NCBI GenBank assembly: GCA_964631275.1
Contig: CAZVWQ010000002.1
Location: 26,206 to 90,205, forward strand
Length of the DNA stretch: 64,000 nt
Direction: 5' to 3'
Source of the DNA: an uncultured Candidatus Saccharibacteria bacterium
GTDB lineage: Bacteria; Patescibacteriota; JACMRA01
Under the pieces are notes generated by a model. That model saw only the letters and a list, made by a program, of their open reading frames with translations. It did no database searches and was not told the DNA's origin. The position numbers and the translations under genes were made by a program. Every line of letters starts with the position of its first letter. Positions within the stretch are counted from its first letter, which is position 1. This document shows, in pieces, positions 6,370 through 38,529 of the stretch.

Positions 6370-6435
6370 AAAATAAACAAAAAATAGTTTGCTCTTTTTA
6401 TAGTTTAAAACTATTAACCCAAAAGATAAGTTAGT

Positions 6436-7410
6436 TTAAATTTCTGTATTCTCCAAATACACCTCTTTATCAGTACCTGGATTCCAACCAAGAAAAACTA
6501 AATAATTAAGGATAGCTTCTGGTAAAAATCCTTCATCTAAATAGCTCTGCATATCTACATTACCATCTCTTTTGGATAATTTTTTGTTCCCAGTTTCACC
6601 TAAAATAAAAGGTAAATGAATATAAGCAGGAACTTGACCCCAATAGTCAAAAAACATAGCTGTGTGCCTAGCAATACTTGGATACCACTCTTGAGCTCTA
6701 ATTACCAAAGTAGTTTTCATTAAGTAATCATCAACTAGATGTGCCAAGTGATAGGTTGGATATCCATCAGACTTTAGAATTGTGAAATCTTCTTCTAGGT
6801 TAAGATCAAATTTGGTCTTGCCAAGTAACTCGTCCTTGCACTCAATAGTTTTATCCCTTTGTAGCTTGTATTTGAGTACTGGTTTGGATTGATCTTTCAG
6901 ACCATCTTTTAGACTTTGAGTTAGTTTTTGTTGGTTAAATCTTTCTTGGCAAATTTTATAATAATTAATTGCTTTTTTGTTGATTTTTTTAATTTCTAAT
7001 AATTCTTGTTTATCTTCTTCGGTTAGATAACTCCAGTAAGCTAAACCCTTATCAAGCAAATTTTGAGCATGTTCGTGATATATATCTAATCTTTTGGATT
7101 GAATGTAAGGCCCAAAGTCTCCTTTTTCGTAGATATCATAAAATTCATCATAAACTCCACCCTGTGAATCATCAGAAATAGGATCAAGTAAAGTAATACC
7201 TTCTTTGGGTAATAAATGTAGCTGATCTAGAGTTTCTAGAAGCTTACGAGCTGAGTCACTTTGCAAACGGTTGCGATCTGTATCTTCTAGCCTGAGATAC
7301 CACTGACCTTGATTTTTGTTAGCAAATAAAGCTGTAAAGAGTATTTGTCGAGTTGTACCTAAATGCAAGTATCCAGTAGGTGAGGGTGCCTGCCTAGTTC
7401 TAAAAGTCAT
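6436..7410 (-). CDS. gltX: glutamyl-tRNA synthetase catalytic core, lacking the anticodon-binding domain (truncated)
   Basis: APSPTGYLHLG (HIGH-like), LRLEDTDRNR, KLSKR (KMSKS) and GFLPEAILNYLVFLGWNPG. TAA follows 14 aa later. Start chosen at ATG 7410; the ORF track starts at TTG 7446. Confidence 0.8.
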   Translation of the reverse strand: MTFRTRQAPSPTGYLHLGTTRQILFTALFANKNQGQWYLRLEDTDRNRLQSDSARKLLETLDQLHLLPKEGITLLDPISDDSQGGVYDEFYDIYEKGDFGPYIQSKRLDIYHEHAQNLLDKGLAYWSYLTEEDKQELLEIKKINKKAINYYKICQERFNQQKLTQSLKDGLKDQSKPVLKYKLQRDKTIECKDELLGKTKFDLNLEEDFTILKSDGYPTYHLAHLVDDYLMKTTLVIRAQEWYPSIARHTAMFFDYWGQVPAYIHLPFILGETGNKKLSKRDGNVDMQSYLDEGFLPEAILNYLVFLGWNPGTDKEVYLENTEI

Positions 7411-7577
7411 ACTCACAAAGTTTTTTTGATTAAATAATTTAGTCAAGAATATTTTTAGACCATGATGTAATTCTTATAACTTTATAAATTTTTCATAAGC
7501 TTACTTGACTAGATTTGTTTTTGTTACAAGTTGTGTTTACTAGATTTAATTTCGACTAGTGAGTCAGTTTTATCGGT

Positions 7578-7695
7578 ATTAATCTTGTCTCAAAATAAGT
7601 TAAAAATAACTAGTTTATATCTTGAAATAAAAAAATTCATTATTTTAGCTGAATTGGCAGTTTTTTATTATTTGTATAAATAAAAGGTAAATCGA
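7578..7695 (+). repeat. repeat family C, divergent copy (terminus attaatcttgtctcaaaa)
   Basis: Shares its terminus with families B and C; the interior is only loosely similar. Confidence 0.35.
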
Positions 7696-7799
7696 TTATT
7701 TTTTCTAATTACGGAACAAGCCCATTGAATGACTTTTTGATTAACATTTATTATTTTTTTTGCCTTTTTTGATTTTTTAATCTAGACTCTATAATCTAT

Positions 7800-10220: not shown

Positions 10221-10420
10221 CAAATACACTAAAATAAAAGAACTATTTAACTAATTCTGATTTTTAGAATTTTTTTTAGAAAAACTCTTAGGTTTTTTCT
10301 TTGGCTAAATTGTTTTACAGCTAATCCACATAGGCAGCTTAGATATTTTGTACCTCTAAAGCTGCTTTTTATACCAGTTATGTTCGTTTTGTAATCAAAA
10401 CTGACAGAGTAGTTAAACTT

Positions 10421-24789: not shown

Positions 24790-24920
24790 TTGACAAAGAT
24801 TAATTTTGAGATTAACATATGTTTATGTTTAAAGTGTTAACAATTACAACCATGCCTTTACTCCAATAGGGGCTATTTGTGTTGTTATATTCTTAAGCCC
24901 CGAAAGGGGTTTATTTTTTT
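24790..24920 (+). promoter_or_regulatory. candidate leader-peptide attenuator or small RNA unit
   Basis: TTGACA 24790-24795, 17-nt spacer, TAACAT 24813-24818. Mini-ORF ATG 24825..TAG 24869 (MFKVLTITTMPLLQ). GGGGCT 24869-24874 can pair with AGCCCC 24896-24901, which alternatively forms a 7-bp GAAA-loop hairpin with 24906-24912 followed by a T-run. Confidence 0.35.
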
Positions 24921-25013
24921 GCACTTATTCTTTACAACTTAACTTAAAACTAAAAATTAATAATCAAAGGCAATCAATTCTAAATTAAAAATTATTATTT
25001 ATTAACTAAAAAT

Positions 25014-25496
25014 ATGTCCATTCCAAAAAACTCACAAAAATTACCTATAAAAATCTATGAGGATCAAGAGTTTGGTTTGGAGATTAGAATCGATGAGCAG
25101 GGCGAGACTCTATGGCTAAGTCAATCTCAGATTGCCGAACTTTTTGGTAAAAACAGGTCAGTTATTAACAAGCATATTAAAAATATCTATTTAGAAGAAG
25201 AGCTGATGGAAAAATCAACCTGTGCAAATTTTACACAAGTTCAAACCGAAGGAGCAAGAAAGGTAAAAAGAAGTATTCCTCATTACAATTTAGACGTTGT
25301 CTTATCAGTTGGATACAGGGTCAATTCCAAAAAAGCTACCAGATTCCGCCAGTGGGCTAATTCCATACTCAAAGATTATCTCCTCAAAGGTTATAACATT
25401 CCTAGTATTGAAGATTTGCAAAGTTATCCTTGGGGTCACACGAGTTTTTCAATTGAAGACCCAGATCAAAACAAACTTAAATTCTTTACACAATAA
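25014..25496 (+). pseudogene. RhuM-family N-terminal fragment fused to a VOC/glyoxalase-like C-terminal tail (chimeric relic)
   Basis: LWLSQSQIAELFGKNRSVINKHIKNIY..LSVGYRVNSKKATRFRQWANSILKDYLLKGY is the RhuM N-half. The tail YPWGHTSFSIEDPDQNKLKFF resembles a VOC C-terminus. Confidence 0.6.
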
Positions 25497-25538
25497 AATA
25501 TTTAAATTAAAGATTAATTAGAATTTAAAACATACCTT

Positions 25539-26261
25539 ATGCCCATATCAAAAAATTCAGAAACCAAACTAAAATATTTTGAAGACACTTATTTATTCCA
25601 GTCTCAAGCTACTGTACTTGATATAATTGAAGATGGAAACTTCCCTGATAAGCAGATTTTAATTTTGGATCAAACTATTTTTTATCCACAAGGTGGTGGT
25701 CAGCCCAGTGATACTGGAATTATAGAGTCTAAAGATGGTAATTTTGTTTTTAAAGTTGAAAAAGTTGCTTTTAATTCAAATGGACAAGTCTACCACATTG
25801 GAGAATTTATAAAAAATAAATTTAAAATTGGAGAGTCAGTTAAACTTAAAATAGATAAAGAAAAAAGGGTTTTAAATGCAAAAAACCATACAGCTGGGCA
25901 TTTGATTGATTGGACAGTTGAAAGTTTGAATTTAAATTTGAAAGCTAAAAAAGGTTTTCATTTTCCCCAAGGTTCATATGTGGAATATCAGGGGGAATTA
26001 AGTGAAGATAAAGAAGAGCTAGCTAAGAAAATTGAAAAAAGAGCAAATCAGATTATCTCAGAAAATCCTAAAATTGAATTTGTATTTGAAAATAACAAGC
26101 ATGAAAGCGGTAAACCAATGCGAATTATGAAAATTGAAGGCTATCAAAATTGCCCTTGTGGAGGAACCCATGTTAAAGAAGCTAAAGAAATTGGTATTCT
26201 TACAATTAGAAAAATTAAAGCTAAAAAAGGGAATATTAAAATTTCCTATCAGGTAGGCTAA
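25539..26261 (+). CDS. alaX: AlaX-type alanyl-tRNA editing protein
   Basis: HTAGHLI and CPCGGTHV zinc/editing motifs. 240 aa. Confidence 0.85.
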   Translation: MPISKNSETKLKYFEDTYLFQSQATVLDIIEDGNFPDKQILILDQTIFYPQGGGQPSDTGIIESKDGNFVFKVEKVAFNSNGQVYHIGEFIKNKFKIGESVKLKIDKEKRVLNAKNHTAGHLIDWTVESLNLNLKAKKGFHFPQGSYVEYQGELSEDKEELAKKIEKRANQIISENPKIEFVFENNKHESGKPMRIMKIEGYQNCPCGGTHVKEAKEIGILTIRKIKAKKGNIKISYQVG

Positions 26262-26330
26262 AGCCACTCATTACAAAGAAAAATTATTCATTATTCACTA
26301 TTATTTATTAACTATTAATTAAAAAACACT

Positions 26331-28742
26331 ATGTCTATCTCAAAAAACTCAAAAAACTTACAACTAGATACTAAACGTCACTCTTTTGCTCATTTAATGG
26401 CAGCTGCCGTAGGGAAAATGTTTCCAGAAGCTCAATTTGGAGTCGGTCCAGTTATTGAAAATGGCTGTTATTACGACTTTATTTTACCCAGAACTTTAAT
26501 CCCAGAAGATTTACCACTACTTGAAAACAAAATCAAGGAAATGTTAAAACAACCTCTGGTTTTTAAAGTCCAAGAAATGGAATTACAGGAAGCTGTTTTA
26601 CTTTTTGAAAAAATGAATCAACCACTAAAAGTTGAACTCTTAAACGATCTTGCAACTCGTGGAACAACTGCTATGAGTGAGGAGGAGAAAGAGTCCTTCC
26701 TTGAGGAAGGTGCCCGTAGGGCGGAAGGTGTTAACACTTCATCAAAAAACAAACTAGGAATTTTACCTTACAATCCAGAATTAAAAGAAAAAGCCAAGGA
26801 ACTTAGAAAAAATTCTTCTAAAATAGAGGTTAGGTTTTGGTGCGAATTAAAAAATCACCCAGAATTATCCAAAATTGATTTTCATAGGCAAAAACCAGTT
26901 TTAAATTATATTTTAGATTTTTATATTCCAGAATTTGGAATTGCTGTTGAACTAGATGGCGAGAGTCATAACGAACAGATTGAATATGATGAAAAAAGAA
27001 CTCAAGAATTAGAAAATTTAGGTTTGAAAGTGCTTAGATTTACAAACGAAGAGATAAAAAATAACTTAGATGGGGTTTTTGCAGAAGTTAATAAAGAAAT
27101 TGATTTAATTAAAAAAACAGATACTGTCTCTGATAGTCCTTCCAAGAGAACACACCCCGTCAGCTCCGCTGACACCCCTCTGGAGAATAACACACCCCGC
27201 CCTACGGGCACCCCTCTCAAGAGGGGACTTCCTAAAATTACCATCTACCGTCTGGAGAATGAAAAAACTGGCGAGGATTTGTTTGTAGATTTATGCAAAG
27301 GTCCGCATGTGGAAGATGTTAAAGAGCTTAAAGGCTTAGGTTTTTCTCTAGACAAATTTAGTGGCTCCTACTGGCGAGGGGATCAAGCCCGCAACATCCA
27401 AATGCAACGAATTTATGCCTTGGTTTTTGATACAAAAGAGGAGTTAAAAGAGTTTCAAGAAAAAAGGAAGCTAGCCCAAGAAAGAGATCACCGCAAACTC
27501 GGTCAAGAGTTAGAAATTTTTATGGTCTCTGATGAAGTTGGTTCTGGACTGCCACTTTATCTGCCAAACGGAGCGGCGATTAGGCAACTTTTAGAAAAAT
27601 ATTGTTATCAAGAAGCCAAAAAATCAGGTTATCAGTATGTTTATACCCCGCATATCGGAAAGGAGGATTTGTTCAAAAAATCTGGGCATTTAGATCACTA
27701 TCGCGACGGAATGTTTGCACCGATTGATATGGTCAATCTGGATGGTGAAGGTGCGGATGAGTCTGGTAAAACTGAGAAGTTTTATCTAAAACCGATGAAT
27801 TGCCCAATGCACCATAATATTTATTTAAATACTCCAAAAAGCTACCGTGACCTGCCTTATCGTTTGTATGAATACGGCACCGTGTATCGCTACGAGGAGT
27901 CTGGAACTTTGTCTGGGATGATCAGAGTGCGAGGTTTTACTCAAAATGATGCCCATGTTTATTGCCAGCGAACTCAGCTAAAAGAGGTGATCGGCGAGGC
28001 ACTTAACCGCTTCATCAAGGCTTACAACGACATCGGAATCACTGATTATAAAATGAGGTTTAGCCTTCCTGATTTTGTGAATGAAAAAGAGAAATTTGGG
28101 GAAGAGACTCAAGAATGGGTTGAGGCGGTTAGTGCTATGAGACAGGCACTAGATGAGCTGGGTGTGGATTATTATGATGCGGTTGGTGAAGCAGCTTTTT
28201 ATGGACCAAAAATTGATATTCAGGTTAAAAATGTGAACGGCAAAGAGGATTCACTTTCAACTATTCAAGTGGATTACTCCATCGCTCCAAAGTTTGGAAT
28301 TACCTTTAAAAACGACAAAGGCGAGGAGGAAGTGCCAGCGATTATTCATATGGCTTTGATGGGATCCGTGGACAGGTTTATGGCATTTATGCTGGAGATG
28401 ACCGGTGGAAGATTACCTCTCTGGCTAGCTCCAACTCAAGTCAAGATTTTGACTATTAATAATGAAGAGGAGACTTTGGAATATGTAGCTAAAATCAAAG
28501 CAATCCTGGATGAGACAGTGCTTATGAAACCGCTAAAATATAATGAAATAAGGTATGAAGTAGATGATAGACAAGAATCACTTGGCAAAAAAATCCGAGA
28601 AGCTACGATGATGAAAATCCCAGTGCAATTAATCGTCGGGCCAAAAGATGTTCAGGCAGGTGAGGTTAGTGTCAGGACACAACAGGGGGAGAGTAAGGTT
28701 GGGTTGGAAAGTTTACAAGAATATTTAAGAAATTTAGAGTAA
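26331..28742 (+). CDS. thrS: threonyl-tRNA synthetase (no TGS domain) with a 179-codon in-frame insertion in the editing domain
   Basis: HSFAHLM, DLCKGPHV, YWRGD, RDHRKLG, class II motifs (FYLKPMNCPMH, GMIRVRGFTQNDAH) and an anticodon-binding C-terminus. Confidence 0.95.
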   Translation: MSISKNSKNLQLDTKRHSFAHLMAAAVGKMFPEAQFGVGPVIENGCYYDFILPRTLIPEDLPLLENKIKEMLKQPLVFKVQEMELQEAVLLFEKMNQPLKVELLNDLATRGTTAMSEEEKESFLEEGARRAEGVNTSSKNKLGILPYNPELKEKAKELRKNSSKIEVRFWCELKNHPELSKIDFHRQKPVLNYILDFYIPEFGIAVELDGESHNEQIEYDEKRTQELENLGLKVLRFTNEEIKNNLDGVFAEVNKEIDLIKKTDTVSDSPSKRTHPVSSADTPLENNTPRPTGTPLKRGLPKITIYRLENEKTGEDLFVDLCKGPHVEDVKELKGLGFSLDKFSGSYWRGDQARNIQMQRIYALVFDTKEELKEFQEKRKLAQERDHRKLGQELEIFMVSDEVGSGLPLYLPNGAAIRQLLEKYCYQEAKKSGYQYVYTPHIGKEDLFKKSGHLDHYRDGMFAPIDMVNLDGEGADESGKTEKFYLKPMNCPMHHNIYLNTPKSYRDLPYRLYEYGTVYRYEESGTLSGMIRVRGFTQNDAHVYCQRTQLKEVIGEALNRFIKAYNDIGITDYKMRFSLPDFVNEKEKFGEETQEWVEAVSAMRQALDELGVDYYDAVGEAAFYGPKIDIQVKNVNGKEDSLSTIQVDYSIAPKFGITFKNDKGEEEVPAIIHMALMGSVDRFMAFMLEMTGGRLPLWLAPTQVKILTINNEEETLEYVAKIKAILDETVLMKPLKYNEIRYEVDDRQESLGKKIREATMMKIPVQLIVGPKDVQAGEVSVRTQQGESKVGLESLQEYLRNLE
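26694..27230 (+). mobile_element. inverted-repeat-bounded element encoding a DUF559/Vsr-like endonuclease domain, translated in frame within thrS
   Basis: Left repeat 26694-26732 tccttccttgaggaaggtgcccgtagggcggaaggtgtt. Right repeat 27189-27230 aacacaccccgccctacgggcacccctctcaagaggggactt. Core FHRQKPVLNYILDFYIPEFGIAVELDGESH..LRFTNEEI. 537 bp = 3 x 179. Confidence 0.7.
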
Positions 28743-28745
28743 ATT

Positions 28746-29612
28746 ATGTTTTTATTAGACAATCATACAGACATTTTGTTAGGGGATTGTCTGCAGGAAC
28801 TTAAGAAAATTGAAGATGAATCTGTTCAACTCATTATAACCTCTCCGCCATATGCAGATCAACGAGCTAAAACTTATGGTGGAATTCATCCTGACAAATA
28901 TGTAGAGTGGTTTTCACCAATTGCTAAAGAAATGTTACGGGTACTTAAACCTGATGGAACTTTTATTCTAAATATTAAAGAAAAAGTAGTTGAAGGGGAA
29001 AGGCATACCTATGTTTTAGAGTTAATTTTAGAGATGAAAAAGCAAGGCTGGTTATGGACAGAAGAATTTATCTGGCATAAAAAAAATTGCTATCCTGGCA
29101 AATGGCCAAATAGATTTAGAGATAGTTGGGAAAGACTTTTACAGTTTAATAAAAATAAAAAGTTTTCCATGTACCAAGATGAGGTTATGGTACCTATGGG
29201 TGATTGGGCAAAAACTAGATTGAAAAATTTAAGTAAAACTGATAAAATTAGAGATAATTCTAAAGTTGGTAGTGGTTTTGGTAAAAATATTTCTAATTGG
29301 GTTGGTAGAAATATGGCCTACCCAAGTAATGTTTTGCATTTAGCTACAGAAACTAGTAACAAAAATCATAGTGCTACTTTTCCTAAAGAGCTACCAAGTT
29401 GGTTTATCAAGCTTTTTACAAAAAAAGGAGACTTGGTCTTAGATCCATTTTTGGGTAGTGGAACAACTTGCCTTGCTTCGCTTGAACTTGAAAGGAATTC
29501 AATTGGGATTGAGATTAAAAAAGAGTATTATGAACTTGCTTTAGAAAACATCCATATTAAAAGAGAAGAGTTATTTACAAAAAATAAACAAAATGAATTA
29601 TGTCTAATTTAG
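28746..29612 (+). CDS. type II DNA methyltransferase (beta-class, SPPY motif; N4-C or N6-A)
   Basis: IITSPPYADQ (motif IV) precedes DPFLGSGTTCLAS (motif I). Starts 3 nt after the thrS stop. Confidence 0.88.
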   Translation: MFLLDNHTDILLGDCLQELKKIEDESVQLIITSPPYADQRAKTYGGIHPDKYVEWFSPIAKEMLRVLKPDGTFILNIKEKVVEGERHTYVLELILEMKKQGWLWTEEFIWHKKNCYPGKWPNRFRDSWERLLQFNKNKKFSMYQDEVMVPMGDWAKTRLKNLSKTDKIRDNSKVGSGFGKNISNWVGRNMAYPSNVLHLATETSNKNHSATFPKELPSWFIKLFTKKGDLVLDPFLGSGTTCLASLELERNSIGIEIKKEYYELALENIHIKREELFTKNKQNELCLI

Positions 29613-30334
29613 ATTATCAAAAAGTTGAAACTTTTATTCAAAACAATATTATTACAGTTTTTTATGATAAAAGAATAATAAATTTAGAAAAAATTCAACT
29701 CAATAAAATACTCAAGTCTAAAAATCCATACCTTCTTAAAGCCAAAAATATTGAAACTGCTAGTGACTTAATTAAATCAGTTTTAGATGCTGTAATCTCT
29801 TCTTCTGAAGAAACTATTTTTGGAAATTTATTAGAAGAATTGGCTATATTTGTAAATGAGATTGTTTACGATGGTAAAAAATCAACTGCTAAAGGAATAG
29901 ACTTGGAGTTTGAAAAAGGTGGTATTTTATATTTAGTAGCTATTAAATCAAGACCAAATTGGGGTAATAGTAGCCAAATTAAAAAAATGATATCAGATTT
30001 TATTTCTGCTAAAAAAACTTTAAGAACTAGTAATTCTAACAATAAACAAATTGAATTTATTAATGGTTGCTGTTATGGCAAAGATAACAATCCTGATAAA
30101 GGAAATTATTTAAAATTGTGTGGTCATAAATTTTGGAGTATAATTTCTGGGGACGAGGAATTTTATTTAAAAATTATCAAACCCATTGATAAGCAGAGCA
30201 AACAAAAAGATGAGGTTTTTAAAGAAAAATATGCAATGAAGTTAAATTTATTGACAGGGGAACTATTAGAAAATTATTGCATAAATGGAAAAATAAATTG
30301 GGAACAAATTTTAGAATTTAACAGTGGTAGCTAA
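29600..30334 (+). CDS. putative type II restriction endonuclease (family not recognised)
   Basis: Overlaps the methyltransferase gene by 13 nt. GIDLEFEKGG..VAIKS could be a PD-(D/E)xK-like core. Confidence 0.45.
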   Translation: MSNLDYQKVETFIQNNIITVFYDKRIINLEKIQLNKILKSKNPYLLKAKNIETASDLIKSVLDAVISSSEETIFGNLLEELAIFVNEIVYDGKKSTAKGIDLEFEKGGILYLVAIKSRPNWGNSSQIKKMISDFISAKKTLRTSNSNNKQIEFINGCCYGKDNNPDKGNYLKLCGHKFWSIISGDEEFYLKIIKPIDKQSKQKDEVFKEKYAMKLNLLTGELLENYCINGKINWEQILEFNSGS

Positions 30335-30352
30335 GTATTGTATTATCTAAAT

Positions 30353-30484
30353 ATCCCAGTTCAGCTCATCGTCGGGCCAAAGGATGTTCAGGCAGGTGAG
30401 GTTAGTGTCAGGACACAACAGGGGGAGAGTAAGGTTGGGTTGGAAGAATTAAATCAATTTTTAACAAATTTAAGTCAAAAATAA
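30353..30484 (+). pseudogene. displaced copy of the thrS 3' end (copy 2)
   Basis: 30368-30445 differs from 28632-28709 at 1 of 78 nt. Reads IPVQLIVGPKDVQAGEVSVRTQQGESKVGLEE..* in frame. Confidence 0.88.
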
Positions 30485-30487
30485 TTT

Positions 30488-30982
30488 ATGAATGATGTAA
30501 TCTTTATAACTGGCTGTCCGACTAGTGGTAAGTCCACTATTTCCAGTTTGTTGCAACAAAAGCTACAATCTCCAATGTTTGAATTTGGCTGGATTCCAGA
30601 ATTTCGTCTTTTGGAGGTTGATCAAAAATATGAAGATGAGGAGAAATTAAGTTTTGAAAATCTAAATTTGGTTGTAAAAAATTATGTTAAACACGGCTAT
30701 TCCAATATAATTATAACGGATATACGGGATGACCTATTGAAACAAGTACCGACAATTTATAATGAATATTCATACAAAATATTTACCCTAATCCTATCTG
30801 AAGAAGAGATAAAATTTAGAATAGACAAAAGAAAAATCGAAAAAAATGGTTTTAGTAACCTTCAATTAGCGATTAAGTCAAATCAATTTTGGAGTGATTC
30901 AAACTTTAAAAATCAAACTAAAATATTTGCCGAGAATATGAATCCTGAGAAAATATTGAATATTATTTTGAATCAATTATAA
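30488..30982 (+). CDS. P-loop NTPase / small kinase-like protein
   Basis: ITGCPTSGKSTIS Walker A at the N-terminus. 164 aa. Starts 3 nt after the copy-2 stop. Confidence 0.65.
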   Translation: MNDVIFITGCPTSGKSTISSLLQQKLQSPMFEFGWIPEFRLLEVDQKYEDEEKLSFENLNLVVKNYVKHGYSNIIITDIRDDLLKQVPTIYNEYSYKIFTLILSEEEIKFRIDKRKIEKNGFSNLQLAIKSNQFWSDSNFKNQTKIFAENMNPEKILNIILNQL

Positions 30983-31240
30983 AGATTTTGCTTTTGAGGT
31001 TTGGTGTTAGGTGGTTGACAACTTAGGCGAGTTTTTAGAGGGTTTAGATTTATAATATCTAATCACATTACAAAGTTAGGAAAGAGTACATTTTCTGAAT
31101 AAGTTATTTGAATTAATTGTATTTTTAAGGTGCTGGTTTTTTTAATTCCTACCCAAATTATCTAATAAATTTATCAGTAATTTTGTTTATCTATGAAGGA
31201 TTTTTTAAAATAAAACATTTTTTAACTAACTATCAATTAT

Positions 31241-31528
31241 ATGTATCAAGACTTAATAAATCAAGCACCTCAACTTTCATCAGAGTTTATAGCTGCAATT
31301 GCTGCCTCATCTCCTTGGGCCTTGCAAAAGGCTGGAGAGTCTGCGGTTGGAGAAGTTGTCAAAGACGGCTGGAGCTGGCTAAAGAGTGTTTTTAGCAAAA
31401 AGGGTAAAGATCAGGAATTGGATAATTTAGTTGAAAGACCAAAAGATCCCAAGATCCAGGGCAGGTTAGAACTTATTTTGGAAGATTATCTTAAGGAAAA
31501 TCCAGAAGAAATGGACTATACCCATTAG
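31241..31528 (+). CDS. small helical hypothetical protein (possibly an orphan N-terminal adaptor-like domain)
   Basis: ORF only. GWSWLKSVFSKKGKDQELDNLVERPKDPKIQGRLELILEDYLKENPE. Confidence 0.4.
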   Translation: MYQDLINQAPQLSSEFIAAIAASSPWALQKAGESAVGEVVKDGWSWLKSVFSKKGKDQELDNLVERPKDPKIQGRLELILEDYLKENPEEMDYTH

Positions 31529-31659
31529 AAACTGGGGTCAAGTTTTAAATCAATTGACAATTATCTTTGAAGAAAGGATTACTAAATACATTAATCTTAG
31601 TGATGTCTGAAACTAAGAACTTACACGGAATTGGTTAGGGTCTCTATTAAAATCATCTT

Positions 31660-32220
31660 ATGAAAAAATTGTACTCGTATAAAATTATCGCTGTATTATT
31701 TATTATACCATTTTTAGTAAATTGGGTGTTTTTGTTATTTTTTGGCAAACCTTATTTATTCATTTTTATGCCTAAATATATATTACACCCTTTAATTTCA
31801 GGTTTTTATACTCAATTTATTTATAGCTTAATTATTCTGGTTTTATTTCTTTTGTTAGTATTCAAAGCTAAACTAAAACTAACTTTAATTTCTAGTCTGT
31901 TTATTGCAATTTCTGTATTTATTGCAATTTTTAACTTACTTGGATCAACTTCTTTCTTCCATGAAAAAGGGTGTTCAGATGCAGTTTACCAATCAGGCCT
32001 TTCAAGAGATATCAACTATGATGTTTTTGTACCAACCAACAATCGTTTAATTTATCAAAGAATTGCAACATGGGAAGATGTAAATGGTACTATTTTAGTT
32101 AGGATAAGCAATAATGAAGAACTCTTAAAACAGGATCAAAAATTAGAATTAGTAAAATGTTCAGTTGAAGCCGCAGTCGATAGCTATGGAGATTATGATA
32201 TTGAGCAAATAGATTTTTAG
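31660..32220 (+). CDS. multi-pass membrane protein (hypothetical)
   Basis: Four hydrophobic helices followed by a soluble tail. Confidence 0.5.
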   Translation: MKKLYSYKIIAVLFIIPFLVNWVFLLFFGKPYLFIFMPKYILHPLISGFYTQFIYSLIILVLFLLLVFKAKLKLTLISSLFIAISVFIAIFNLLGSTSFFHEKGCSDAVYQSGLSRDINYDVFVPTNNRLIYQRIATWEDVNGTILVRISNNEELLKQDQKLELVKCSVEAAVDSYGDYDIEQIDF

Positions 32221-32251
32221 TTATGCAGTTTTACCAAACTCTAGCTATATT

Positions 32252-32350
32252 ATCGCCGTGCTAGAATATATTCAGGCAGGGGAGGCTAGTGTAAGGACAC
32301 AAGAGGGAGAGAGTAAGGTTGAGTTGGAGGAGCTACAAAGCTATTTATAA
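32252..32350 (+). pseudogene. displaced, diverged copy of the thrS 3' end (copy 3)
   Basis: atcgccgtgctagaatatattcaggcaggggaggctagtgtaaggacacaagagggagagagtaaggttgagttggag.. Reads ..IQAGEASVRTQEGESKVELEELQSYL*. Confidence 0.7.
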
Positions 32351-32366
32351 GGTTTAAAATAACAAA

Positions 32367-33968
32367 ATGTTTGGATATAATTTATTAGAAACGATAGTAA
32401 TCTTTTTTGTAGGGATCTTGAATTTTGGTTTCTTTTTTTCTATTTTTGGTATTATATTGTACAAATTATTTAAAGTAGTTTCTAAAACACCAGAAACTCT
32501 CAGCTTTTGGTTTTTTATAAGATATTTAATTTATGTTTCAGCTTTTAGCATTTATAATCTAGTTATCATTATTTTGATGATATTCTTGTTGTTTAACCCA
32601 GCTGTTCCAGTAGTATTTTATGTAGTTAATAGACCTTGGATAGATTCTTTTATTAATAACACTCCAATAATTGCAAATTTTATTAATTTCATTTCCAATC
32701 ACCCACAAAATAGACTTATAGGAATGTTATTTTTTATAAATTTTGTCTTATTTGGTTGGTTTGTACTAGTCTTATCACCATTCAAACTAGAAAATCCTTT
32801 AGATTTTAATAATCCTAAAAAGACTAATTTTTTGACTAGATTTTTAGATAAATTACTAAACTTTTTTCTAAAAGTTAGACCAGAAATAGATCTTAAAAAA
32901 TACCAATTAGAATTAGATATAAACTTACAGAATAATTTAAAATTTGATAAAGAATTGCTGGAAAGATTAGAAAGATATGAAAGTTTTAGATTCAAACATT
33001 ATTTGGAGTTATTTAAGTTTCCCTTACAAAAAAGATTTTTTTTAGAAATAGTAATTGGATGTTTATTACTTGTTAGTGGGGTTATAGGCTTTTGGTTGTA
33101 TCCTTTTGAGAATACTGGGAATAGCGATTTGGATGACTTTTTTATTTTACTATATTTTTTTGGAATGATTTTTTTATTTATATTTTTTTATGTTAAAAGA
33201 AGGAATATAAATTTTAGTAAAAAGAACAGTGTTGTTACAGAAAAACTAACTAAAAGTTATTTACCATTAGTTCAAAATAGATATAAAACAGAAATTTTAA
33301 ATTATATTTTTAGTAAATCAGTTTTAAAACGTAACGCCGCAACAAGTTACTTACTTGGAGAAGAACTGAAACAAGATCAATTTTTAAATTCATCTCATAA
33401 TAATTTTAAAGTTAGTGATTTTTTAGAAAGTCAATATGCAAATCTAGATATAAAATTCTATGATTTGAAAACATCTCCAATTGATAGCAAAAAAGAAGAG
33501 TTGAGAGAAAGTTCTGGTATTTATATAAAAACTAGTTTTCAGGAAAAATTTAAAGGCGTGATTTTTGTGACGACTAAAAATAAAAAGTTTTTCACAAAAC
33601 AGCTGGTTAATTATCCAGATATTAAACAAAGTTTAAAATTTGAGACAGAAAGCTTGGATTTTAATCTTCAATTTAGCGTTTATACTAGGAATCAAATAGA
33701 GGCTCGGCTGGCATTAAAAACTAATATTATGTATGCTTTATTGCAGCTAGCCAATTTAAATAAAAATATTTATCTCAAATTAGAAAGCAATTCAGCTTAT
33801 TTATTTTTAGAAACAGAAAAAGACTTTTTTGAATATGATTATTTTGCCAAACAAAGATTAAGTTCTACCACCACCTTTAACAGCTTACAAAATGAGATTT
33901 ATAACCAATATCAGTTACCAATTATAATTTCTTTGTTACTAAACCCAAGAAAAAAAGCGATTCTTTAG
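32367..33968 (+). CDS. membrane protein with a DUF3137-like C-terminal domain
   Basis: N-terminal TM helices. C-terminus FETESLDFNLQFSVYTRNQIEARLALKTNIMYALLQL resembles the DUF3137 signature (F-x-V-Y-x-x-x-Q-x-E-A-R); this is from memory, not searched. Confidence 0.55.
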   Translation: MFGYNLLETIVIFFVGILNFGFFFSIFGIILYKLFKVVSKTPETLSFWFFIRYLIYVSAFSIYNLVIIILMIFLLFNPAVPVVFYVVNRPWIDSFINNTPIIANFINFISNHPQNRLIGMLFFINFVLFGWFVLVLSPFKLENPLDFNNPKKTNFLTRFLDKLLNFFLKVRPEIDLKKYQLELDINLQNNLKFDKELLERLERYESFRFKHYLELFKFPLQKRFFLEIVIGCLLLVSGVIGFWLYPFENTGNSDLDDFFILLYFFGMIFLFIFFYVKRRNINFSKKNSVVTEKLTKSYLPLVQNRYKTEILNYIFSKSVLKRNAATSYLLGEELKQDQFLNSSHNNFKVSDFLESQYANLDIKFYDLKTSPIDSKKEELRESSGIYIKTSFQEKFKGVIFVTTKNKKFFTKQLVNYPDIKQSLKFETESLDFNLQFSVYTRNQIEARLALKTNIMYALLQLANLNKNIYLKLESNSAYLFLETEKDFFEYDYFAKQRLSSTTTFNSLQNEIYNQYQLPIIISLLLNPRKKAIL

Positions 33969-34245
33969 TCGGTAATGCTGATACATATTTGATATAAAAT
34001 GCTTGATTTAAGAATGTAAATAGATATTATGTTAGATAAGATAAAACCTTACTCTAGGAGGTCTAAACAAGAAATTCTAAAAGATGTCTGTGAGCTAATT
34101 TTATTACATCAAAAAGGGCTTTAGAGCAGGAATAACTTTAAAACTCCGTTGACAGAAAAAGGAGGAGAAGTTTAGTTCGGCGGGATTATTAATTTATCTA
34201 AAGAATTTAAAGTACTAATATACATGAAGAAACAAACTTTTGGTA

Positions 34246-34274
34246 TTGACAAATTACCCTACAATTAGTATACT
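34246..34274 (+). promoter_or_regulatory. sigma70-type promoter (TTGACA, 17-nt spacer, TATACT) 9 nt upstream of the antitoxin ATG
   Basis: ttgacaaattaccctacaattagtatact. Start codon at 34284. Confidence 0.5.
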
Positions 34275-34283
34275 TACCTTACC

Positions 34284-34583
34284 ATGACTTACAAAGTAAA
34301 ACTTAGTAAAAAAAATCAAGGTACTCTTCCAGTTGCTTTACTAAAAACTCTTGGCTTGAGTCCCAACACTGAAAATACATTAATTATTTATGAGGATATA
34401 AATGGTAATTTTGTCATACAAACACTTAAGCATATGGTTAATAGTATCCAAGGATCGCTTGGAAAAAAGCTATCTTCTAAGACAAAAACCAAGCTAGCAA
34501 AAATGACTCCTGAAGAAATTATTGAAGCTGAAAAAAATGCAAAATACGATCATCTTAAAACCAAGAAAAAAGATAAGGTATGA
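34284..34583 (+). CDS. vapB: AbrB/SpoVT-fold antitoxin
   Basis: YKVKLSKKNQGTLPVALLKTLGL. Overlaps the PIN gene by 4 nt. Confidence 0.7.
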   Translation: MTYKVKLSKKNQGTLPVALLKTLGLSPNTENTLIIYEDINGNFVIQTLKHMVNSIQGSLGKKLSSKTKTKLAKMTPEEIIEAEKNAKYDHLKTKKKDKV

Positions 34584-34975
34584 TTTTTGTAGATACTAAT
34601 TATATCAATCGTTTTTTATTGCAAGACATTCCTGAGCAGTCTAAAATAGTAAATCAACTTTTTGAAAAAGCCTCCAAAAAGGAAGTTACTTTAGTGAGTA
34701 CAGATCTAGTATTTTTTGAAGTTTGTTGGAGCTTGGGCCAATTTTACGAGTTACAAGAAAAAGAGGTTTTGAGCGAATTATACAAGATTATTTCTAGCGG
34801 TCTGATCAATTTTCAATCCAATGAATTATTGTTAGCAAGTATTTTGCAAAGCCTCCAAAATAATTTGGGAATAGAGGATAATTACAATTTGTTATTTGCT
34901 AAAACAGAGGCTGAAGATTTTGCTACTTTTGATAAAAAGCTTTTAAACTTTTACAAAAAATTTCGCAAAGATTAA
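34580..34975 (+). CDS. vapC: PIN-domain toxin
   Basis: MIFVDTNYI (first acidic residue) and later E/D positions. 131 aa. Confidence 0.78.
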   Translation: MIFVDTNYINRFLLQDIPEQSKIVNQLFEKASKKEVTLVSTDLVFFEVCWSLGQFYELQEKEVLSELYKIISSGLINFQSNELLLASILQSLQNNLGIEDNYNLLFAKTEAEDFATFDKKLLNFYKKFRKD

Positions 34976-34988
34976 TACATCAAACCAA

Positions 34989-35522
34989 ATGACAAACTTA
35001 CCACAAGATATAAAAGAAAAATTTTACAAAACAATTGCTAGTGATATTTCAGCTAATGACTTTGAACAGTGGTTGTATGAGGACAAAGAACTTGAAAAGT
35101 ATTTAAATGTTAATGATTATCTTGAATTAATTTCTTTTAGTTTCAAGCAAGACGAAGTTGAATACGAGTTTTGTAAATTACTAAAAAAGCATATTGATCT
35201 TGGAGAATTTGAAACCTACAAAATCCTGGCACTTTTAAACGAAGCAAAACAAAAGACTGAGAGGCTCGCATATATTTTAATGAAGTTTTATGATTTATAT
35301 TGTGGAGGGTATAGCTTTCTTCAGGATCTTGGGGTTGCGTTTGGGTCTGCGGTTGAAGTTGTGAATGCGTGGGAAAAATTAACCAAAGAACAACAACAAA
35401 AACTCTTAGACAGTTTTTCGCCTGACCTTGAAGAATATATAGAAAAAGTTATTTATTGGCTTGAAACCAAGAGAATTATTTTGACAGGAGGAAGTATATG
35501 TAATTGGTCTTTACAGTTATAA
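34989..35522 (+). CDS. hypothetical protein
   Basis: ORF only. Confidence 0.45.
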   Translation: MTNLPQDIKEKFYKTIASDISANDFEQWLYEDKELEKYLNVNDYLELISFSFKQDEVEYEFCKLLKKHIDLGEFETYKILALLNEAKQKTERLAYILMKFYDLYCGGYSFLQDLGVAFGSAVEVVNAWEKLTKEQQQKLLDSFSPDLEEYIEKVIYWLETKRIILTGGSICNWSLQL

Positions 35523-35825
35523 AGATTTGCGGACAGAAGAGGAGAAAAAACCAAAATTTTTTAGACTTGGTTAATAAAAATAGAAAATAAGGGTTTTAAA
35601 ACAAACCTCCATATTTAGGGAGATTGTCAAAAGAGATTATAGAGAAGTTATAGTAAATCAGTCAATTGAAGTATCACTCAAAATCACTCTTGACCAGTTT
35701 GTTAAGAAAAGCTAAACTTAAACAATTAGCAACAAATGTTACTTAAATTTTGATTCGTAATCATTGGCTATTACATTTGGCTAGCGAGTTTTAGCATAGA
35801 GTATTCCTATTCGCTGTTACCGGTG

Positions 35826-35883
35826 TGGTCATGGATTCGAGTCCCACCATTTCCGCAAGGAAATGTAGCTCAGTTGGTAGAGC
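35826..35883 (+). other. tRNA-like relic in permuted order (T-arm plus 3' acceptor strand, 1 nt, then 5' acceptor strand plus D-arm)
   Basis: ggtc-atgga-ttcgagt-cccac-catttcc-gca a ggaaatg-ta-gctc-agttggta-gagc-a. The acceptor strands are complementary. The T-stem has 2 mismatches. Confidence 0.5.
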
Positions 35884-35951
35884 ACACTTATACTTCGCTA
35901 AAACAAAAATTCAGCACAGAAAGTTCCTTAAATCTGTTTCTACTTTCCGCT

Positions 35952-36699
35952 ATGTCAACTATAAAATTATTTAACAAGGCTTTTAAAAGCCAAGAAATTG
36001 ACTATAGAGTCATTGCCCAGTTGGCTACAAAAGTTGGTTACTTGATCCATCCTGAATGCTGCAGTCAAGAAGTTTTAGAATTTTTAAAGCAACAAAAAAT
36101 AGACTTTAATTCTACTTTTTATCAAGCTTGGGAAGATATAACTTCCAAAAGTAGATAGGAATTATTTATTGACCAAATCATCCACTACACTTCTACATAT
36201 GGTACGAACTTTGAAGGTCAACCTTATTTACCCCAAAAAACTGACCAAATTCCTGAATTTACAAATTTTAAAATCATTTTACCAATAGAAAAATAAGAGG
36301 CTGCTAAGAGATGTGAAGCAAAGCTTAGCTCTGGGATTGCCCTAGCTCAAGAAACAATTAATGATATTTTTAGGATTTTTAAGCAATGCAATTATCAAGT
36401 AAATCTTGAGATTATAAAAAACAAAGAGGCTAAGATGCTGATAGCCAAAGAGCAAGGTATTTTACCAAACAATCCAGTAGAATTTGTTAGATATTTGATT
36501 TATTTTAGCTACTGAAAAAACTTTACTAATCAGAGATAAACAAACTTTAGCAGCTATTAAAGAGTCTGAATTAAATATTACTGATTTAGTTAATCAATTT
36601 GGAATTACTCAATTATCTTCTGTTTTTTTGAGATACAAGCCAATTTTTCTAGCTTTTAAAAAGGCAAATAGGGCTGATTTTTTTACACCTTATAAATAA
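35952..36699 (+). pseudogene. disrupted gene of unknown family (in-frame TAG and TAA plus one frameshift)
   Basis: MSTIKLFNKAF..YQAWEDITSKSR*ELFIDQIIHYTSTYGTNFEGQPYLPQ..PIEK*EAAKRCEAKLSSGIALAQE..VRYLIYF, frameshift, ATEKTLLIRDKQTLAAIKES..FLRYKPIFLAFKKANRADFF. Confidence 0.55.
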
Positions 36700-36771
36700 A
36701 ACTCTAAAAATATAAAATGTAGCTATTTCGTAATCAAATTAGATAGTAGAGATAAATTGAATTTTGAAATC

Positions 36772-36900
36772 ATTAATCATGTCTTAAAATCTTTCAAAAA
36801 TCTTTATTTTTTTGTTAAACAAAGTAAAACTATTAAGTTTCCAAAAATTCAGTACTTTTTAGTTTAAAATAAACAAAAATTAACTTATTTCTTTATACTA
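36772..36900 (+). repeat. repeat family C (shares the family B terminus)
   Basis: attaatcatgtcttaaaatctttcaaaaatc..aaaattcagtactttttagtttaaaataaac.. Confidence 0.6.
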
Positions 36901-37512
36901 AAAAAACATACCAAAAAACCTTGTAGGTAATACACCGACAAGGCTGTTCTTTACAAAACTAAAAATTTATGTAAGATAATGAGGAGCTAGACCCCTGCAT
37001 ACAAAAAACCTGGGTACTGCCCCTCATTGTTAGGTAAGTTTAGCTACAGCTGTTCACAACATCATGGATGCTGTAGACAACTAATGAACTTCATACCCCT
37101 GTTGGAACCAATACGTCCTTAACTATTCACCCTCCCCTTTTTGTTTTTGTTAAAACTTTTGTTTTTGTTTGCGTGTAGAGTATTGGTGTCTTACACACGT
37201 AAGAGAAGGTGAATAAAAAAACCCTCCTCTTGACTTTTGTTTTTGTTTACCATTTTTATTTTTGTTGAAATAAACGGTAAAGGGCTTTGTTATATTTGGA
37301 CAATTGCGTTATTAAGTGCTTCAACTTAGCTCCAACAAAGAAATTATACAGCAACTTTTGAGTGTGGTCAAATTACTAGCTCCAAAATAATGTTTTTACT
37401 TTTTATATGACATTAATTCTGTCTTAAGGCTAAACACAGCCTCTACAAAATTAATCAAAAAATAGTTCTATCCTAAAACTTAAAGAAAAAAGTAAATAAA
37501 TAAAGAAGTAAG

Positions 37513-37664
37513 TTAATAGTCTTGTCTCAAACTTGTCTCAAAACCTTTCAAAAATTATTTTTTTTGATTGACTAAAATAAAAGTAATTATTTTCCATAAA
37601 TTCAACACTTTTTACTTTAGAATAAACAAAAAATAGGTTATTTTTTTTGAGTAATAAGGTAGGT
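37513..37664 (+). repeat. repeat family C
   Basis: ttaatagtcttgtctcaaacttgtctcaaaacctttcaaaaatt..ttcaacactttttactttagaataaac..gagtaataaggtagg. Confidence 0.6.
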
Positions 37665-38051
37665 TTACTTTTTTATTTAAAGCAATTTCACAACACTAAA
37701 CTTTAACATGTACATTTCTGAGCTTATTTAGATTTTCTGACAGGCTAGTTTTACCCTTAAAATAAACCACTTTTTGAAATAGAAAATTTTTACTAACATT
37801 TTTATTCTAAGATATCAACAAAATTAGATTTGAATTAAAAATAGCATGAAATTTCTAAAACCTTTTAATAATCAAGTTTTTAGAGTTTTTTGTGATTAAT
37901 TTGTGATTAAAAATATAAATGCTTAATAAGTTTACATTATTGGCTATTTTTGTTAGTTATTGGCATGACCTTAGTAAATATAAAAAACAACTTGTCAAAA
38001 ATCATTATTTGATTTTCAATTATTGTGCAATTTACAATTTTCCAAAAACTA

Positions 38052-38306
38052 ATGGCCAAAAAAGAAAACACAAAAAAAAGCTCTATATACTTAATTGTTG
38101 CTGGTATAGCTCTCATAGTTGTAGTTATGGTATTTATTATTGTTGCTTTAACAAGATCTAACGAAAATATAATAGATACTGATAACGATAGCTCTTCTGT
38201 TTCTTCACTTTCTATGTCTCCTGAAAGTCTTAACCCAAATTTTGAAGAAGCCCCACAATCACCAGAAAATTTACCTAGTGTACCTATACCAGGTGAAGAT
38301 CAGTAA
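38052..38306 (+). CDS. small single-pass membrane protein (hypothetical)
   Basis: MAKKENTKKSSIYLIVAGIALIVVVMVFIIVAL followed by a S/D/P-rich tail. ATG 38052 preferred over the track's GTG 38025. Confidence 0.45.
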   Translation: MAKKENTKKSSIYLIVAGIALIVVVMVFIIVALTRSNENIIDTDNDSSSVSSLSMSPESLNPNFEEAPQSPENLPSVPIPGEDQ

Positions 38307-38529
38307 TATGGAAGTTTTTAAGTACTATACCCATTCCATAACCAAATTCAACATTAAAGCTAAGCTTAATTCGACTTTAAAGGTATTTTGTAGCTTTTTA
38401 GGATTTAAAAATGTAAATTTTGAAGCTGAATTAAATATACCTATTTTAGGAGATCAAAATTTTGTAAATCTGAGTTATAGAACAAGACTAATAATCAAAC
38501 AGCTTATATAATCATGAGATAGGGACCTA

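Follow-up and report, generated by a model that had tools for sequence, protein, structure and literature searches.

The window, meaning the whole 64-kb stretch of DNA analyzed here, contains a threonyl-tRNA synthetase (ThrRS) gene, thrS, with an in-frame DUF559 insert identified by Pfam and orthologues at 75-90% identity in relatives. The last ~130 nt of this gene are repeated twice downstream, as the sequence-only reading had proposed, and repeat and profile searches agree on this. The anchor gene and its three 3' tail copies are:

26331-28742, + strand: thrS, the anchor gene, 803 aa (Pfam tRNA-synt_2b, HGTP_anticodon, tRNA_SAD and DUF559)
28611-28742, + strand: tail copy 1, the functional 3' end of thrS, running from M-K-I-P through the TAA (profile match 28613-28741, E 3e-27)
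30347-30484, + strand: tail copy 2, a displaced thrS end with an intact 48-aa frame ending in ELNQFLTNLSQK and a stop (profile match 30349-30473, E 5e-27)
32241-32350, + strand: tail copy 3, an older displaced thrS end (profile match 32250-32361, E 9e-14)

The profile was built from the thrS tails of relatives and searched against the window, where it matched three times, with no match beyond these copies and no further thrS tail downstream of copy 3. For copy 2, the profile alignment opens at the K codon (model position 90), although the model supplies 90 nt before it. The repeat search returned one direct family, also of three copies (28614-28736, 30350-30472 at 89% and 32234-32356 at 71%), and a 49-nt exact core is present twice in the window, with none expected from shuffles. 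Copies 1 and 2 share the 78-nt stretch with a single mismatch that had been claimed for them, and their longest identical run is 63 nt (28647-28709 = 30383-30445). All 22 differences between the two copies lie outside this run, on both sides of it (P ~5e-6 under uniform placement), as expected from a crossover within the tail. Copy 3 shares no long exact block with the other two and is ~80% identical to both, in line with the four-fifths estimated earlier; ~10 nt are missing at its left end, and its C-terminus is shortened to ELQSYL.

ORF translations show the ThrRS frame open to a TAA in all three copies, again as first described, with the ends GLESLQEYLRNLE, GLEELNQFLTNLSQK and VELEELQSYL. 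The distal parts of the three tails differ, yet each resembles genuine ThrRS C-termini of relatives. The tails are once-functional ThrRS C-termini of differing sequence rather than a simple decaying tandem duplication, so incoming DNA supplied replacement ends and older ends were displaced.

Unrelated cassettes lie between the copies, and a further block of genes lies behind copy 3:

28746-30334, + strand: cassette 1, a type II RM pair (Pfam; PADLOC MTase_II)
28746-29612, + strand: N6/N4 DNA methyltransferase of cassette 1 (PF01555, 1e-49)
29600-30334, + strand: EcoO109I/PmeII-family endonuclease of cassette 1 (PF14511, 1e-76)
30488-32220, + strand: cassette 2, a P-loop module (ORFs and Pfam)
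30488-30982, + strand: P-loop AAA_18 kinase-like protein of cassette 2 (Pfam AAA_18; weak PADLOC VakA match)
31241-31528, + strand: 95-aa ORF of cassette 2 (ORF list)
31660-32220, + strand: 186-aa membrane ORF of cassette 2 (ORF list)
32367-35522, + strand: block of genes behind copy 3 (Pfam)
32367-33968, + strand: DUF3137 membrane protein (Pfam)
34284-34583, + strand: VapB-like protein (Pfam)
34580-34975, + strand: PIN/VapC protein (Pfam)
34989-35522, + strand: uncharacterized ORF
24894-24913, + strand: intrinsic-terminator-like hairpin just 5' of the co-oriented block

The division into an RM pair, a P-loop module and a DUF3137/VapBC block agrees with the earlier description. Cassette 1 is 1.6 kb long and holds only M and R; other mobile-element genes are absent from it. 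The first genes of cassettes 1 and 2 do start 3 nt past the TAA (28746 after 28742 and 30488 after 30484). Every ORF from 25014 to 36158 is on the + strand, and no terminator-like site was found on this strand from 24913 to 37000. Promoter-like matches numbered 74 against 55 expected, a count that is uninformative in such AT-rich DNA.

Searches for recombinases covered both the window and related loci. Window ORFs of 90 aa or more gave no match to an integrase, transposase or resolvase family in Pfam, which bears out the earlier remark that neither an integrase nor a transposase lies near the array. The pre-annotated genes of ten related loci (L088-L099) include no recombinase, and neither of the two cassette ORFs scanned in the related locus L011 encodes one. 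A scan of 46 further ORFs gave no recombinase among the 25 of 52 families listed. The three repeats showed no attC-like fold and no long hairpin on either strand (z -0.99 to +0.18 versus shuffles).

The same tail-cargo-tail architecture, with other cargo, is present in four other assemblies, one of them in three samples. In L011 and L012, thrS is followed by Abi_alpha and glyoxalase genes and then a second tail. In L099, it is followed by AIPR and a 102-aa ORF before the second tail. The three samples L090-92 carry thrS, a type I RM cassette (~7 kb in L090), a deleted tail and then a mini-thrS composed of head and tail. The two repeats within L011, and likewise within L099, are heterologous (58-76%) and not copies of one target; the L011 remnant shares 74% identity with the tail of the L001 type and 58% with the functional tail of L011 itself. 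A single tail without a remnant is found in more distant relatives, such as L002, L010 and L097, and no same-species empty site for the window's array was found among the loci compared.

Similar insertions occupy other targets, with homologous RM pairs at other loci in other genomes. In L103, an RM pair with 69% protein identity to the cassette 1 pair has lgt on one side and an MFS gene on the other; the direct repeat around it is 43 nt long (88%), overlaps the 3' end of the MFS gene and is unrelated to the thrS tail. In L094, 130 nt from the start of a RidA gene are duplicated on either side of a methyltransferase cassette. We count both flanking duplications in favor of a general insertion process.

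Comparison of junctions revealed a fixed right boundary and a variable left one. The alignments of four independent remnants all start at profile positions 89-96, near the K-I-P codons, even though the model offers 90 nt of sequence upstream of this point. Over the 900 nt that precede K-I-P, L011 and L099 share 97% identity, and a stretch of ~85 nt ending at AAAATCCCA contains no mismatch; past this point identity is 76%, and both cassettes and remnants differ. The proposed check for cassette polymorphism in relatives thus came out positive, with 97% identical thrS bodies carrying different tails and different cargo. L090 and L094 have thrS bodies that are 83-85% identical, whereas 2 mismatches occur in the ~170 nt that run from mid-tail (AGGACACAAGAGGG) past the stop to ~100 nt inside hsdR. 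Mismatches are commoner further into hsdR (~93% identity by eye in the following 300 nt displayed), and the entire 4.9-kb BLAST match from thrS to hsdM has 85% identity. The left junction therefore varies, lying at K-I-P (L011/L099), in mid-tail (L090/L094) or within the 63-nt identity block (the window), while the right boundary is fixed. A variable left junction points to homologous recombination.

Taken together, these observations are best fitted by circular modules, each made of a thrS tail and cargo, that would integrate by RecA-type insertion-duplication. We give an even chance to this reading, in which the thrS locus serves as a recombination anchor and gains apparently promoterless cargo modules, mostly defence and TA, through insertion-duplication driven by homology. 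The mobile unit would consist of ~125 nt of thrS 3' end (K-I-P to stop) with cargo directly behind it, most simply in circular form. One RecA-type crossover between the unit's tail and the resident thrS tail would integrate the circle, leaving thrS with a hybrid or incoming tail and the cargo a few bases past the stop, where it could be read through from thrS. The resident tail would become the downstream remnant, always starting where the unit's homology starts, at K-I-P. Repeated rounds could produce the array seen here (tail 1, RM pair, tail 2, P-loop module, tail 3), and recombination between tails might loop a unit back out. The circular intermediate and the dependence on RecA are suggested by the arrangement of tails and junctions, and the units may be transferred by a route such as natural transformation. 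Defence modules have thus apparently accreted serially at the 3' end of an essential thrS in a small-genome host of the CPR/Patescibacteria type, with seemingly no dedicated integrase nearby.

Two points weigh against homologous recombination. The same K-I-P boundary across remnant lineages and the L011/L099 break at AAAATCCCA are what a site-specific recombinase would be expected to leave; the homology model requires that the unit boundary be inherited and that crossover or conversion reach the very end of the homology. In addition, ~125 nt at 65-80% identity is a poor RecA substrate between species, so that transfers would take place mostly between close relatives or through short blocks of identity.

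The first of these points favors a rival reading, which we regard as unlikely but still a serious competitor: the units would be integrated site-specifically by a recombinase whose gene lies elsewhere in the genome, such as a dedicated trans-acting integrase or host Xer. Crossover would then take place at a core AAAATCCCA(G), at the K-I-P codons, and the cassettes, lacking an integrase, would be cis-mobilisable, with a replacement thrS end carried in their attP. The start of four independent remnants within a few bases of one position and the collapse of L011/L099 similarity right after the core fit this scheme, as do the small cassettes without mobility genes in five events and the precedent of streptococcal ICE/CIME elements, in which integration at the 3' ends of protein genes, with a replacement end supplied, and integrase-less accretion are both known. 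However, the L090/L094 left junction lies in mid-tail, the differences in the window fall on both sides of the 63-nt block, and similar duplications flank insertions at unrelated sequences (the 43-nt MFS end and the 130-nt RidA head). Nor was a recombinase seen in the window, the 64 kb of this genome covered here, or in the ten pre-annotated related loci. Later gene conversion between tails could mask a fixed crossover, which tempers the argument from the junctions. The original proposal of serial site-specific insertion therefore stands in part: replacement ends were supplied and older ends displaced, whereas site specificity of the integrase type is not borne out, the left junction being variable.

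An improbable alternative is that the whole thrS gene was duplicated in tandem, or a second thrS acquired, and the redundant copy then deleted, with cargo inserted independently and the tails and heads as leftovers of deletion. L001, where two thrS genes that look complete lie in tandem with 73 nt between them, would suit this scenario, and the L090 mini-thrS, including its upstream spacer, matches the junction of that pair. Independent deletions would not, however, stop at the same K-I-P codons four times, and they should leave fragments of the thrS body, none of which was found anywhere in the loci searched. The heterology of neighboring tails, exemplified by the L011 remnant, and the divergence of L011 and L099 from exactly K-I-P despite nearly identical bodies also argue against it.

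An assembly artefact, in which metagenomic strains with different post-thrS genes were joined through the 63-nt block, is highly improbable: at k=31 a single word is shorter than the block, and the end of the L012 contig coincides exactly with the start of the second tail in L011, but copy 3 has no long exact block able to mislead an assembler, the architecture recurs in the other assemblies and samples, and two independent assemblies connect the end of the RM pair directly to sequence found only in the left part of copy 2 (30350-30382), so at least one duplication is real. The second of these is a Logan contig from SRR7048223 that matches 28680-30412 at 100% and runs from the RM pair into copy 2; it stops within the repeat, as a k=31 graph would, and alone fits either the integrated form or a circle plus an empty site. 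All positions and sequence features given in the sequence-only reading were confirmed.

Several known systems share features with the thrS array. The proposed mechanism parallels C-terminal displacement in rhs genes, for which integrase-free excision and insertion of the C-terminal tip plus a core fragment by homologous recombination, via a circular intermediate, has been proposed (PMC2935791). The related tpsC cassettes, which alternate with other ORFs, can be taken up from the environment (PMC3848433). As with rhs, CdiA and TpsA orphan tips, displaced 3' fragments lie downstream of the full-length gene, each with small unrelated genes behind it, and, as in rhs, the fragments share a conserved start boundary and have heterologous tips. 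Unlike rhs, the anchor is a housekeeping aminoacyl-tRNA synthetase rather than a polymorphic toxin, no separate function is evident for its variable tip, the cargo is defence/TA (RM, AIPR, Abi_alpha, P-loop protein, VapBC) rather than a cognate immunity gene, and the host is a CPR-type bacterium.

RM systems are also known to insert with long target duplication (Nobusato et al. 2000; Furuta et al. 2010, PMC2853133). The thrS locus resembles these insertions in having an RM pair without mobility genes, direct repeats of more than 30 bp over a stop or start (~130 nt here), an insert below 20 kb with both R and M, an intact neighboring gene and a long duplication of variable length, here at three different targets. 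It differs in that the published repeats are near-identical copies of one target, whereas neighboring thrS tails may be no more than 58-80% identical and are genuine alternative ends; the insertions are also serial at one site, and the array carries non-RM cargo.

Integrative elements can likewise enter the 3' or 5' end of a gene and supply a replacement end, and integrase-less derivatives exist, examples being ICESt1/CIME at fda and SXT at prfC. Direct repeats made of the target gene end, a gene kept functional by an element-supplied end and tandem arrays with some integrase-less units are common to both. In contrast to ICE/IME/CIME elements, no integrase-bearing member was seen at the loci examined, the left junction is not fixed, and the units are 1-7 kb, packed tightly behind the stop codon. 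The likeness to integrons suggested earlier does not hold beyond short co-oriented cassettes, each bounded by a repeat, perhaps behind a single expression signal and without promoters of their own: no IntI was found among window ORFs of at least 90 aa, the repeats are coding sequence without an attC-like hairpin, each unit has its repeat on the 5' side, and sequence rather than structure is conserved.

Another difference from rhs lies at the 5' end of thrS, where upstream copies of the gene start, overlooked in the sequence-only reading, form a mirror image of the 3' tail array:

25014-25039, + strand: thrS head copy, ATG plus ~8 codons, MSIPKNSQ (nhmmer E 5.5e-5)
25539-25563, + strand: weaker thrS head copy, MPISKNSE (nhmmer, E 0.16)
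26331-26369, + strand: head of thrS itself, MSISKNSKNLQLD (nhmmer E 7e-11)

A head pattern search gave three matches with none expected. The head at 25014 continues in frame into a truncated RhuM/PDC-S05-type gene (25014-25496; Pfam RhuM, PADLOC PDC-S05), and that at 25539 opens a gene for an AlaX-like editing protein (25539-26261; Pfam tRNA-synt_2c/tRNA_SAD). The same insertion process appears to have operated in mirror image at the 5' end, leaving heads fused to the upstream genes.

In the window, the last ~130 nt of thrS recur in two further downstream copies in direct orientation. These three tails separate the cassettes in the following set of genes.

25014, + strand: thrS start segment (head) on a truncated RhuM/PDC-S05-type gene
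25539, + strand: weaker thrS start segment (head) on an AlaX-like gene
26331-28742, + strand: thrS, 803 aa, with class II core, anticodon-binding domain and in-frame DUF559 domain
28746-29612, + strand: cassette 1, N6/N4 methyltransferase of a type II restriction-modification (RM) pair
29600-30334, + strand: cassette 1, endonuclease of the same RM pair, EcoO109I/PmeII family
Between tail copies 2 and 3, + strand: cassette 2, AAA_18 P-loop protein and two small ORFs
Behind tail copy 3, + strand: DUF3137 membrane protein, VapB-like/PIN pair and an unknown ORF

A repeat search of the window placed 28614-28736, 30350-30472 (89%) and 32234-32356 (71%) in one repeat family. A profile of the relatives' thrS ends matched the 64-kb window exactly three times (E values of 3e-27, 5e-27 and 9e-14), and profile searches of the window revealed no tails or heads beyond these three, the two heads and thrS itself. 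Copies 1 and 2 share an exact 49-nt core, for which the chance expectation is 0, and their longest identical run spans 63 nt (28647-28709 and 30383-30445). None of the 22 differences between these copies falls inside this block; 6 precede it and the others follow it (P about 5e-6 under uniform placement). The 63-nt block is the probable crossover signature in the window. The ThrRS frame stays open to a TAA in all three copies, and the first gene starts 3 nt behind the stop of copies 1 and 2; the sequence-only reading had thus described the repeats correctly in all the details that we checked (coordinates, frame to TAA and 3-nt spacing).

The distal ends of the tails are strongly unlike one another, reading SLQEYLRNLE, ELNQFLTNLSQK and ELQSYL up to their stops, and each of the three distal parts is similar to real ThrRS C-termini of relatives. 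This indicates that each copy was once a working gene end in some lineage. Three differing, formerly working ThrRS ends are consistent with the earlier proposal that incoming DNA supplies a replacement end. Neutral decay of a single tandem duplication is ruled out by the non-uniform placement of the differences (at the P value already given) and by the family-like distal parts.

The window ThrRS falls within a clade of CPR/Patescibacteria-type MAGs labeled Peregrinibacteria, Saccharibacteria, SR1 and Patescibacteria. Among about 100 thrS loci gathered from relatives (designated by L-numbers), most have a single tail, and the window's architecture recurs with other cargo within the closest group. 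In L011 and L012, thrS is followed by Abi_alpha and a glyoxalase-fold gene, with the cargo starting 4 nt behind the thrS stop, and then by a second thrS tail. L099 has an AIPR abortive-infection gene (start 5 nt behind the stop) and a 102-aa ORF, followed by a second, frameshifted tail. In L090, L091 and L092, an arrangement identical in three samples leads from thrS through a type I RM system (start 6 nt behind the stop) and an internally deleted tail to a mini-thrS of 51 aa, in which the first 13 codons are joined to the last 38; one more decayed tail lies 5' of thrS. In other relatives, hsdM, VapBC pairs or T5orf172 stand directly behind thrS, and L001 has two thrS genes in tandem. In the L001 pair (5649-10270), 73 nt separate the genes, whose nucleotide identity is 82-87%; their in-frame inserts differ, by eye two GNAT-like segments in one gene and a NUDIX-like segment in the other. 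The mini-thrS of L090 and its upstream spacer match the junction of this pair.

The relatives and the window have thrS alone in common, with different flanking genes. Since even the closest thrS genes (L104 and L094) are only 81-83% identical in nucleotides to that of the window, the occupancy polymorphism is that of sister lineages and not of the window's own species. A same-species empty site for the window, sought by synteny, was not found.

To define the inserted unit, we used a boundary profile of thrS ends, extended 90 nt into thrS on the upstream side of the K-I-P codons, at which the tails begin. Four independent remnants (window copy 2, L099, the upstream remnant of L090, and L011) begin at model positions 89-96, while two others start slightly later, behind small deletions. 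No thrS body fragments occur outside the gene in any locus examined. Together, these observations show that the right boundary of the unit is fixed. A further ~25 nt of remnant homology to the left of K-I-P, suspected by eye, found no support in the profile alignment.

The left boundary, as judged from pairwise comparisons, appears not to be fixed. L011 and L099 are 97% identical over the 900 nt ahead of K-I-P and share a mismatch-free run of about 85 nt whose last bases are AAAATCCCA; beyond it they are 76% identical and then unrelated. They also differ 5' of the ATG and in having the DUF559 insert. Between L090 and L094, identity is about 83-85% in the thrS body and the proximal tail half, whereas the roughly 170 nt that run from AGGACACAAGAGGG past the stop into hsdR (its first ~100 nt) contain only 2 mismatches, placing the breakpoint inside the tail. 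Mismatches are commoner deeper in hsdR (~93% identity by eye for the 300 nt shown after that), and the whole 4.9-kb thrS-to-hsdM match is 85% identical by BLAST.

Flanking duplications also occur at other targets. The nearest homologs of the window RM pair (81% and 69% protein identity) reside at other loci in other genomes. At L103 6278-8047, a 43-nt direct repeat (88%) brackets the pair with 69% protein identity, with its right-hand copy belonging to the 3' end of a convergently oriented MFS transporter gene. At L094 1220-2321, a methyltransferase cassette sits between 130-nt direct repeats that duplicate the start of a RidA-family gene, with 87 coding nt identical. Such duplications at unrelated targets would point to a process of general scope and not to an enzyme dedicated to thrS.

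The simplest model covering all observations is homology-driven insertion, which has, in our judgment, about an even chance of being correct. A circle consisting of the K-I-P-to-stop segment and cargo would integrate by Campbell-type homologous recombination, and recombination between two tails would make circles anew. The model is supported by the fixed right boundary, the variable left junction, the heterologous but functional tails, the identity block at the presumed crossover, the lack of a detected recombinase nearby and the duplications at unrelated targets. Within it, the existence of a circle, the need for RecA and the route of transfer are inferred. Because the junctions are readable to the single base, this circular-intermediate model is testable on existing metagenomic reads.

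The main rival, which we consider unlikely, is a trans-acting site-specific recombinase that would cross over at AAAATCCCA, with later gene conversion among the tails. The abrupt breakpoint between L011 and L099 and the uniform remnant boundary speak for such an enzyme. In window ORFs of 90 aa or more, no family of integrases, transposases or resolvases was detected, in agreement with the initial remark that no recombinase lies near the array. No recombinase families were listed among the genes of ten pre-annotated related loci, and no integrase was among the 25 of 52 families listed for 46 further ORFs of unannotated relatives. Exact and degenerate scans with strict patterns found no match to the repeat core in viral contigs or JGI metagenome contigs, and so offered no hint that a phage or plasmid carries an attP copy. 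The two tRNA genes of the window (10.9 and 21.2 kb) are both unrelated to the array, which eliminates them as att sites.

Decay of whole-gene tandem thrS copies, an arrangement of which L001 offers an apparently intact instance, is improbable as the origin of the array; no thrS body fragment was found among the remnants. An assembly artefact is very improbable: a Logan contig, an independent assembly of run SRR7048223, equals 28680-30412 at 100% and confirms the join of the RM pair to copy 2, a match that fits an integrated unit or a circle plus an empty site alike.

The 5' end of thrS looks like a mirror image of the tail array. Three successive window genes open with the thrS start segment (25014, 25539 and thrS itself), and the pattern ATGYCYATHYCAAAAAAYTCA has 3 matches in the window where 0 are expected. 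Heads also lie 5' of thrS in L009 (at least three) and L094 (five), and sequence 5' of the thrS ATG is not conserved among close relatives. At this end, cargo would be fused to the old thrS start and thrS given a new one. All genes from 25014 to 36158 are on the + strand; a terminator-like hairpin lies at 24894-24913, and none was found on the + strand between 24913 and 37000.

A bolder reading, which we regard as doubtful, is that both thrS ends form a dedicated platform for defense-cassette capture and expression in a CPR clade, a functional analog of the integron. In this reading, the first ~9 and last ~42 codons of thrS would act as 'att' sites, and the cargo would be expressed by hijacking transcription and translation of thrS. 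Host homologous recombination alone would carry out the exchange, or else an unrecognized trans-acting recombinase using AAAATCCCA-type cores.

CPR/Patescibacteria have tiny genomes, few recognizable mobile elements and little CRISPR, and to our knowledge, how they acquire and shuffle defense genes is poorly understood. At thrS, defense modules (type I and type II RM, AIPR, Abi_alpha and VapBC) appear to be exchanged among strains that are nearly identical, and no integrase was detected nearby. The ends of an essential gene, as anchors, would ensure that every relative offers a conserved target for homology and that the cargo is expressed. The array shares its architecture with rhs/CDI/Tps orphan-tip arrays, but its anchor is a housekeeping synthetase and its cargo consists of defense genes. 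For rhs C-terminal displacement, the two-stage mechanism of our model, in which a circle is integrated and excised by homologous recombination, has been proposed (PMC2935791). In the class of RM insertions that come with a long duplication of their target, the repeats often lie across the target gene's start or stop, and most of the hosts are naturally competent (PMC2853133). Cassette 1 agrees with the formal definition of this class in holding RM genes alone and in its direct repeat of more than 30 bp, except that neighboring thrS repeats can be heterologous. The circle-integration model would account for this class too, joining two unexplained phenomena, the RM insertions and the 'C-terminal displacement' of toxin genes. 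Integrative elements at gene 3' ends likewise have att-like repeats, but the thrS locus has no detected integrase, and its crossover appears not to be fixed. The earlier comparison with integrons, made on unit size, was not borne out: integrons have IntI and attC folding, whereas the array has no detected IntI and no attC-like folding of the repeats was found.

Within thrS itself, the DUF559 (Vsr-like endonuclease) domain occupies aa 151-257 (26700-27230) and is bracketed by a 42-nt inverted repeat (26692-26733 and 27188-27229). In relatives, this site is empty or holds DUF559, GNAT acetyltransferase, HAD or methyltransferase domains, or a NUDIX-like segment recognized from its motif only. L099 has the insert and the 95-97% identical L012 does not, marking the site as a mobile in-frame insertion hotspot. 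The thrS gene call of L099 ends 66 codons early owing to an in-frame TAA at a conserved Tyr codon (4400-4410, KPLK*NELRF); a sequencing error, pseudogene formation or recoding could explain it. In the tail of L003, FII*PKD takes the place of the IVGPKD of other tails, and ORFs called with table 11 are broken up; UGA seems to be a sense codon there and in L014 and L032, which would be in line with genetic code 25. For the window, code 11 gives a normal reading.

Further observations concern the surroundings of the array. The co-oriented block that begins at 25014 is closed by ~3 kb of AT-rich, largely non-coding sequence with apparent frameshifted gene fragments (35523-38520). This includes a permuted tRNA-like stretch (35823-35888), with T-arm/acceptor-3' ahead of acceptor-5'/D-arm; it scores 32 bits against Y-RNA-like YrlA (E 0.001), below the gathering score of 69, and ARAGORN called no tRNA in it. 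At 2909-3841, a single ORF combines a HAD-type hydrolase domain with ~65 residues from the beginning of a class I aminoacyl-tRNA synthetase core, matching model positions 22-88. Unknown ORFs follow downstream at 4274-5598, and the combined ORF may be another interrupted or domain-invaded synthetase gene. On the - strand, a 2352-aa ORF (55806-62864) that has VanY D-Ala-D-Ala carboxypeptidase and M23 peptidase domains toward the C-terminus is predicted to encode a giant protein of the cell-wall-hydrolase type.
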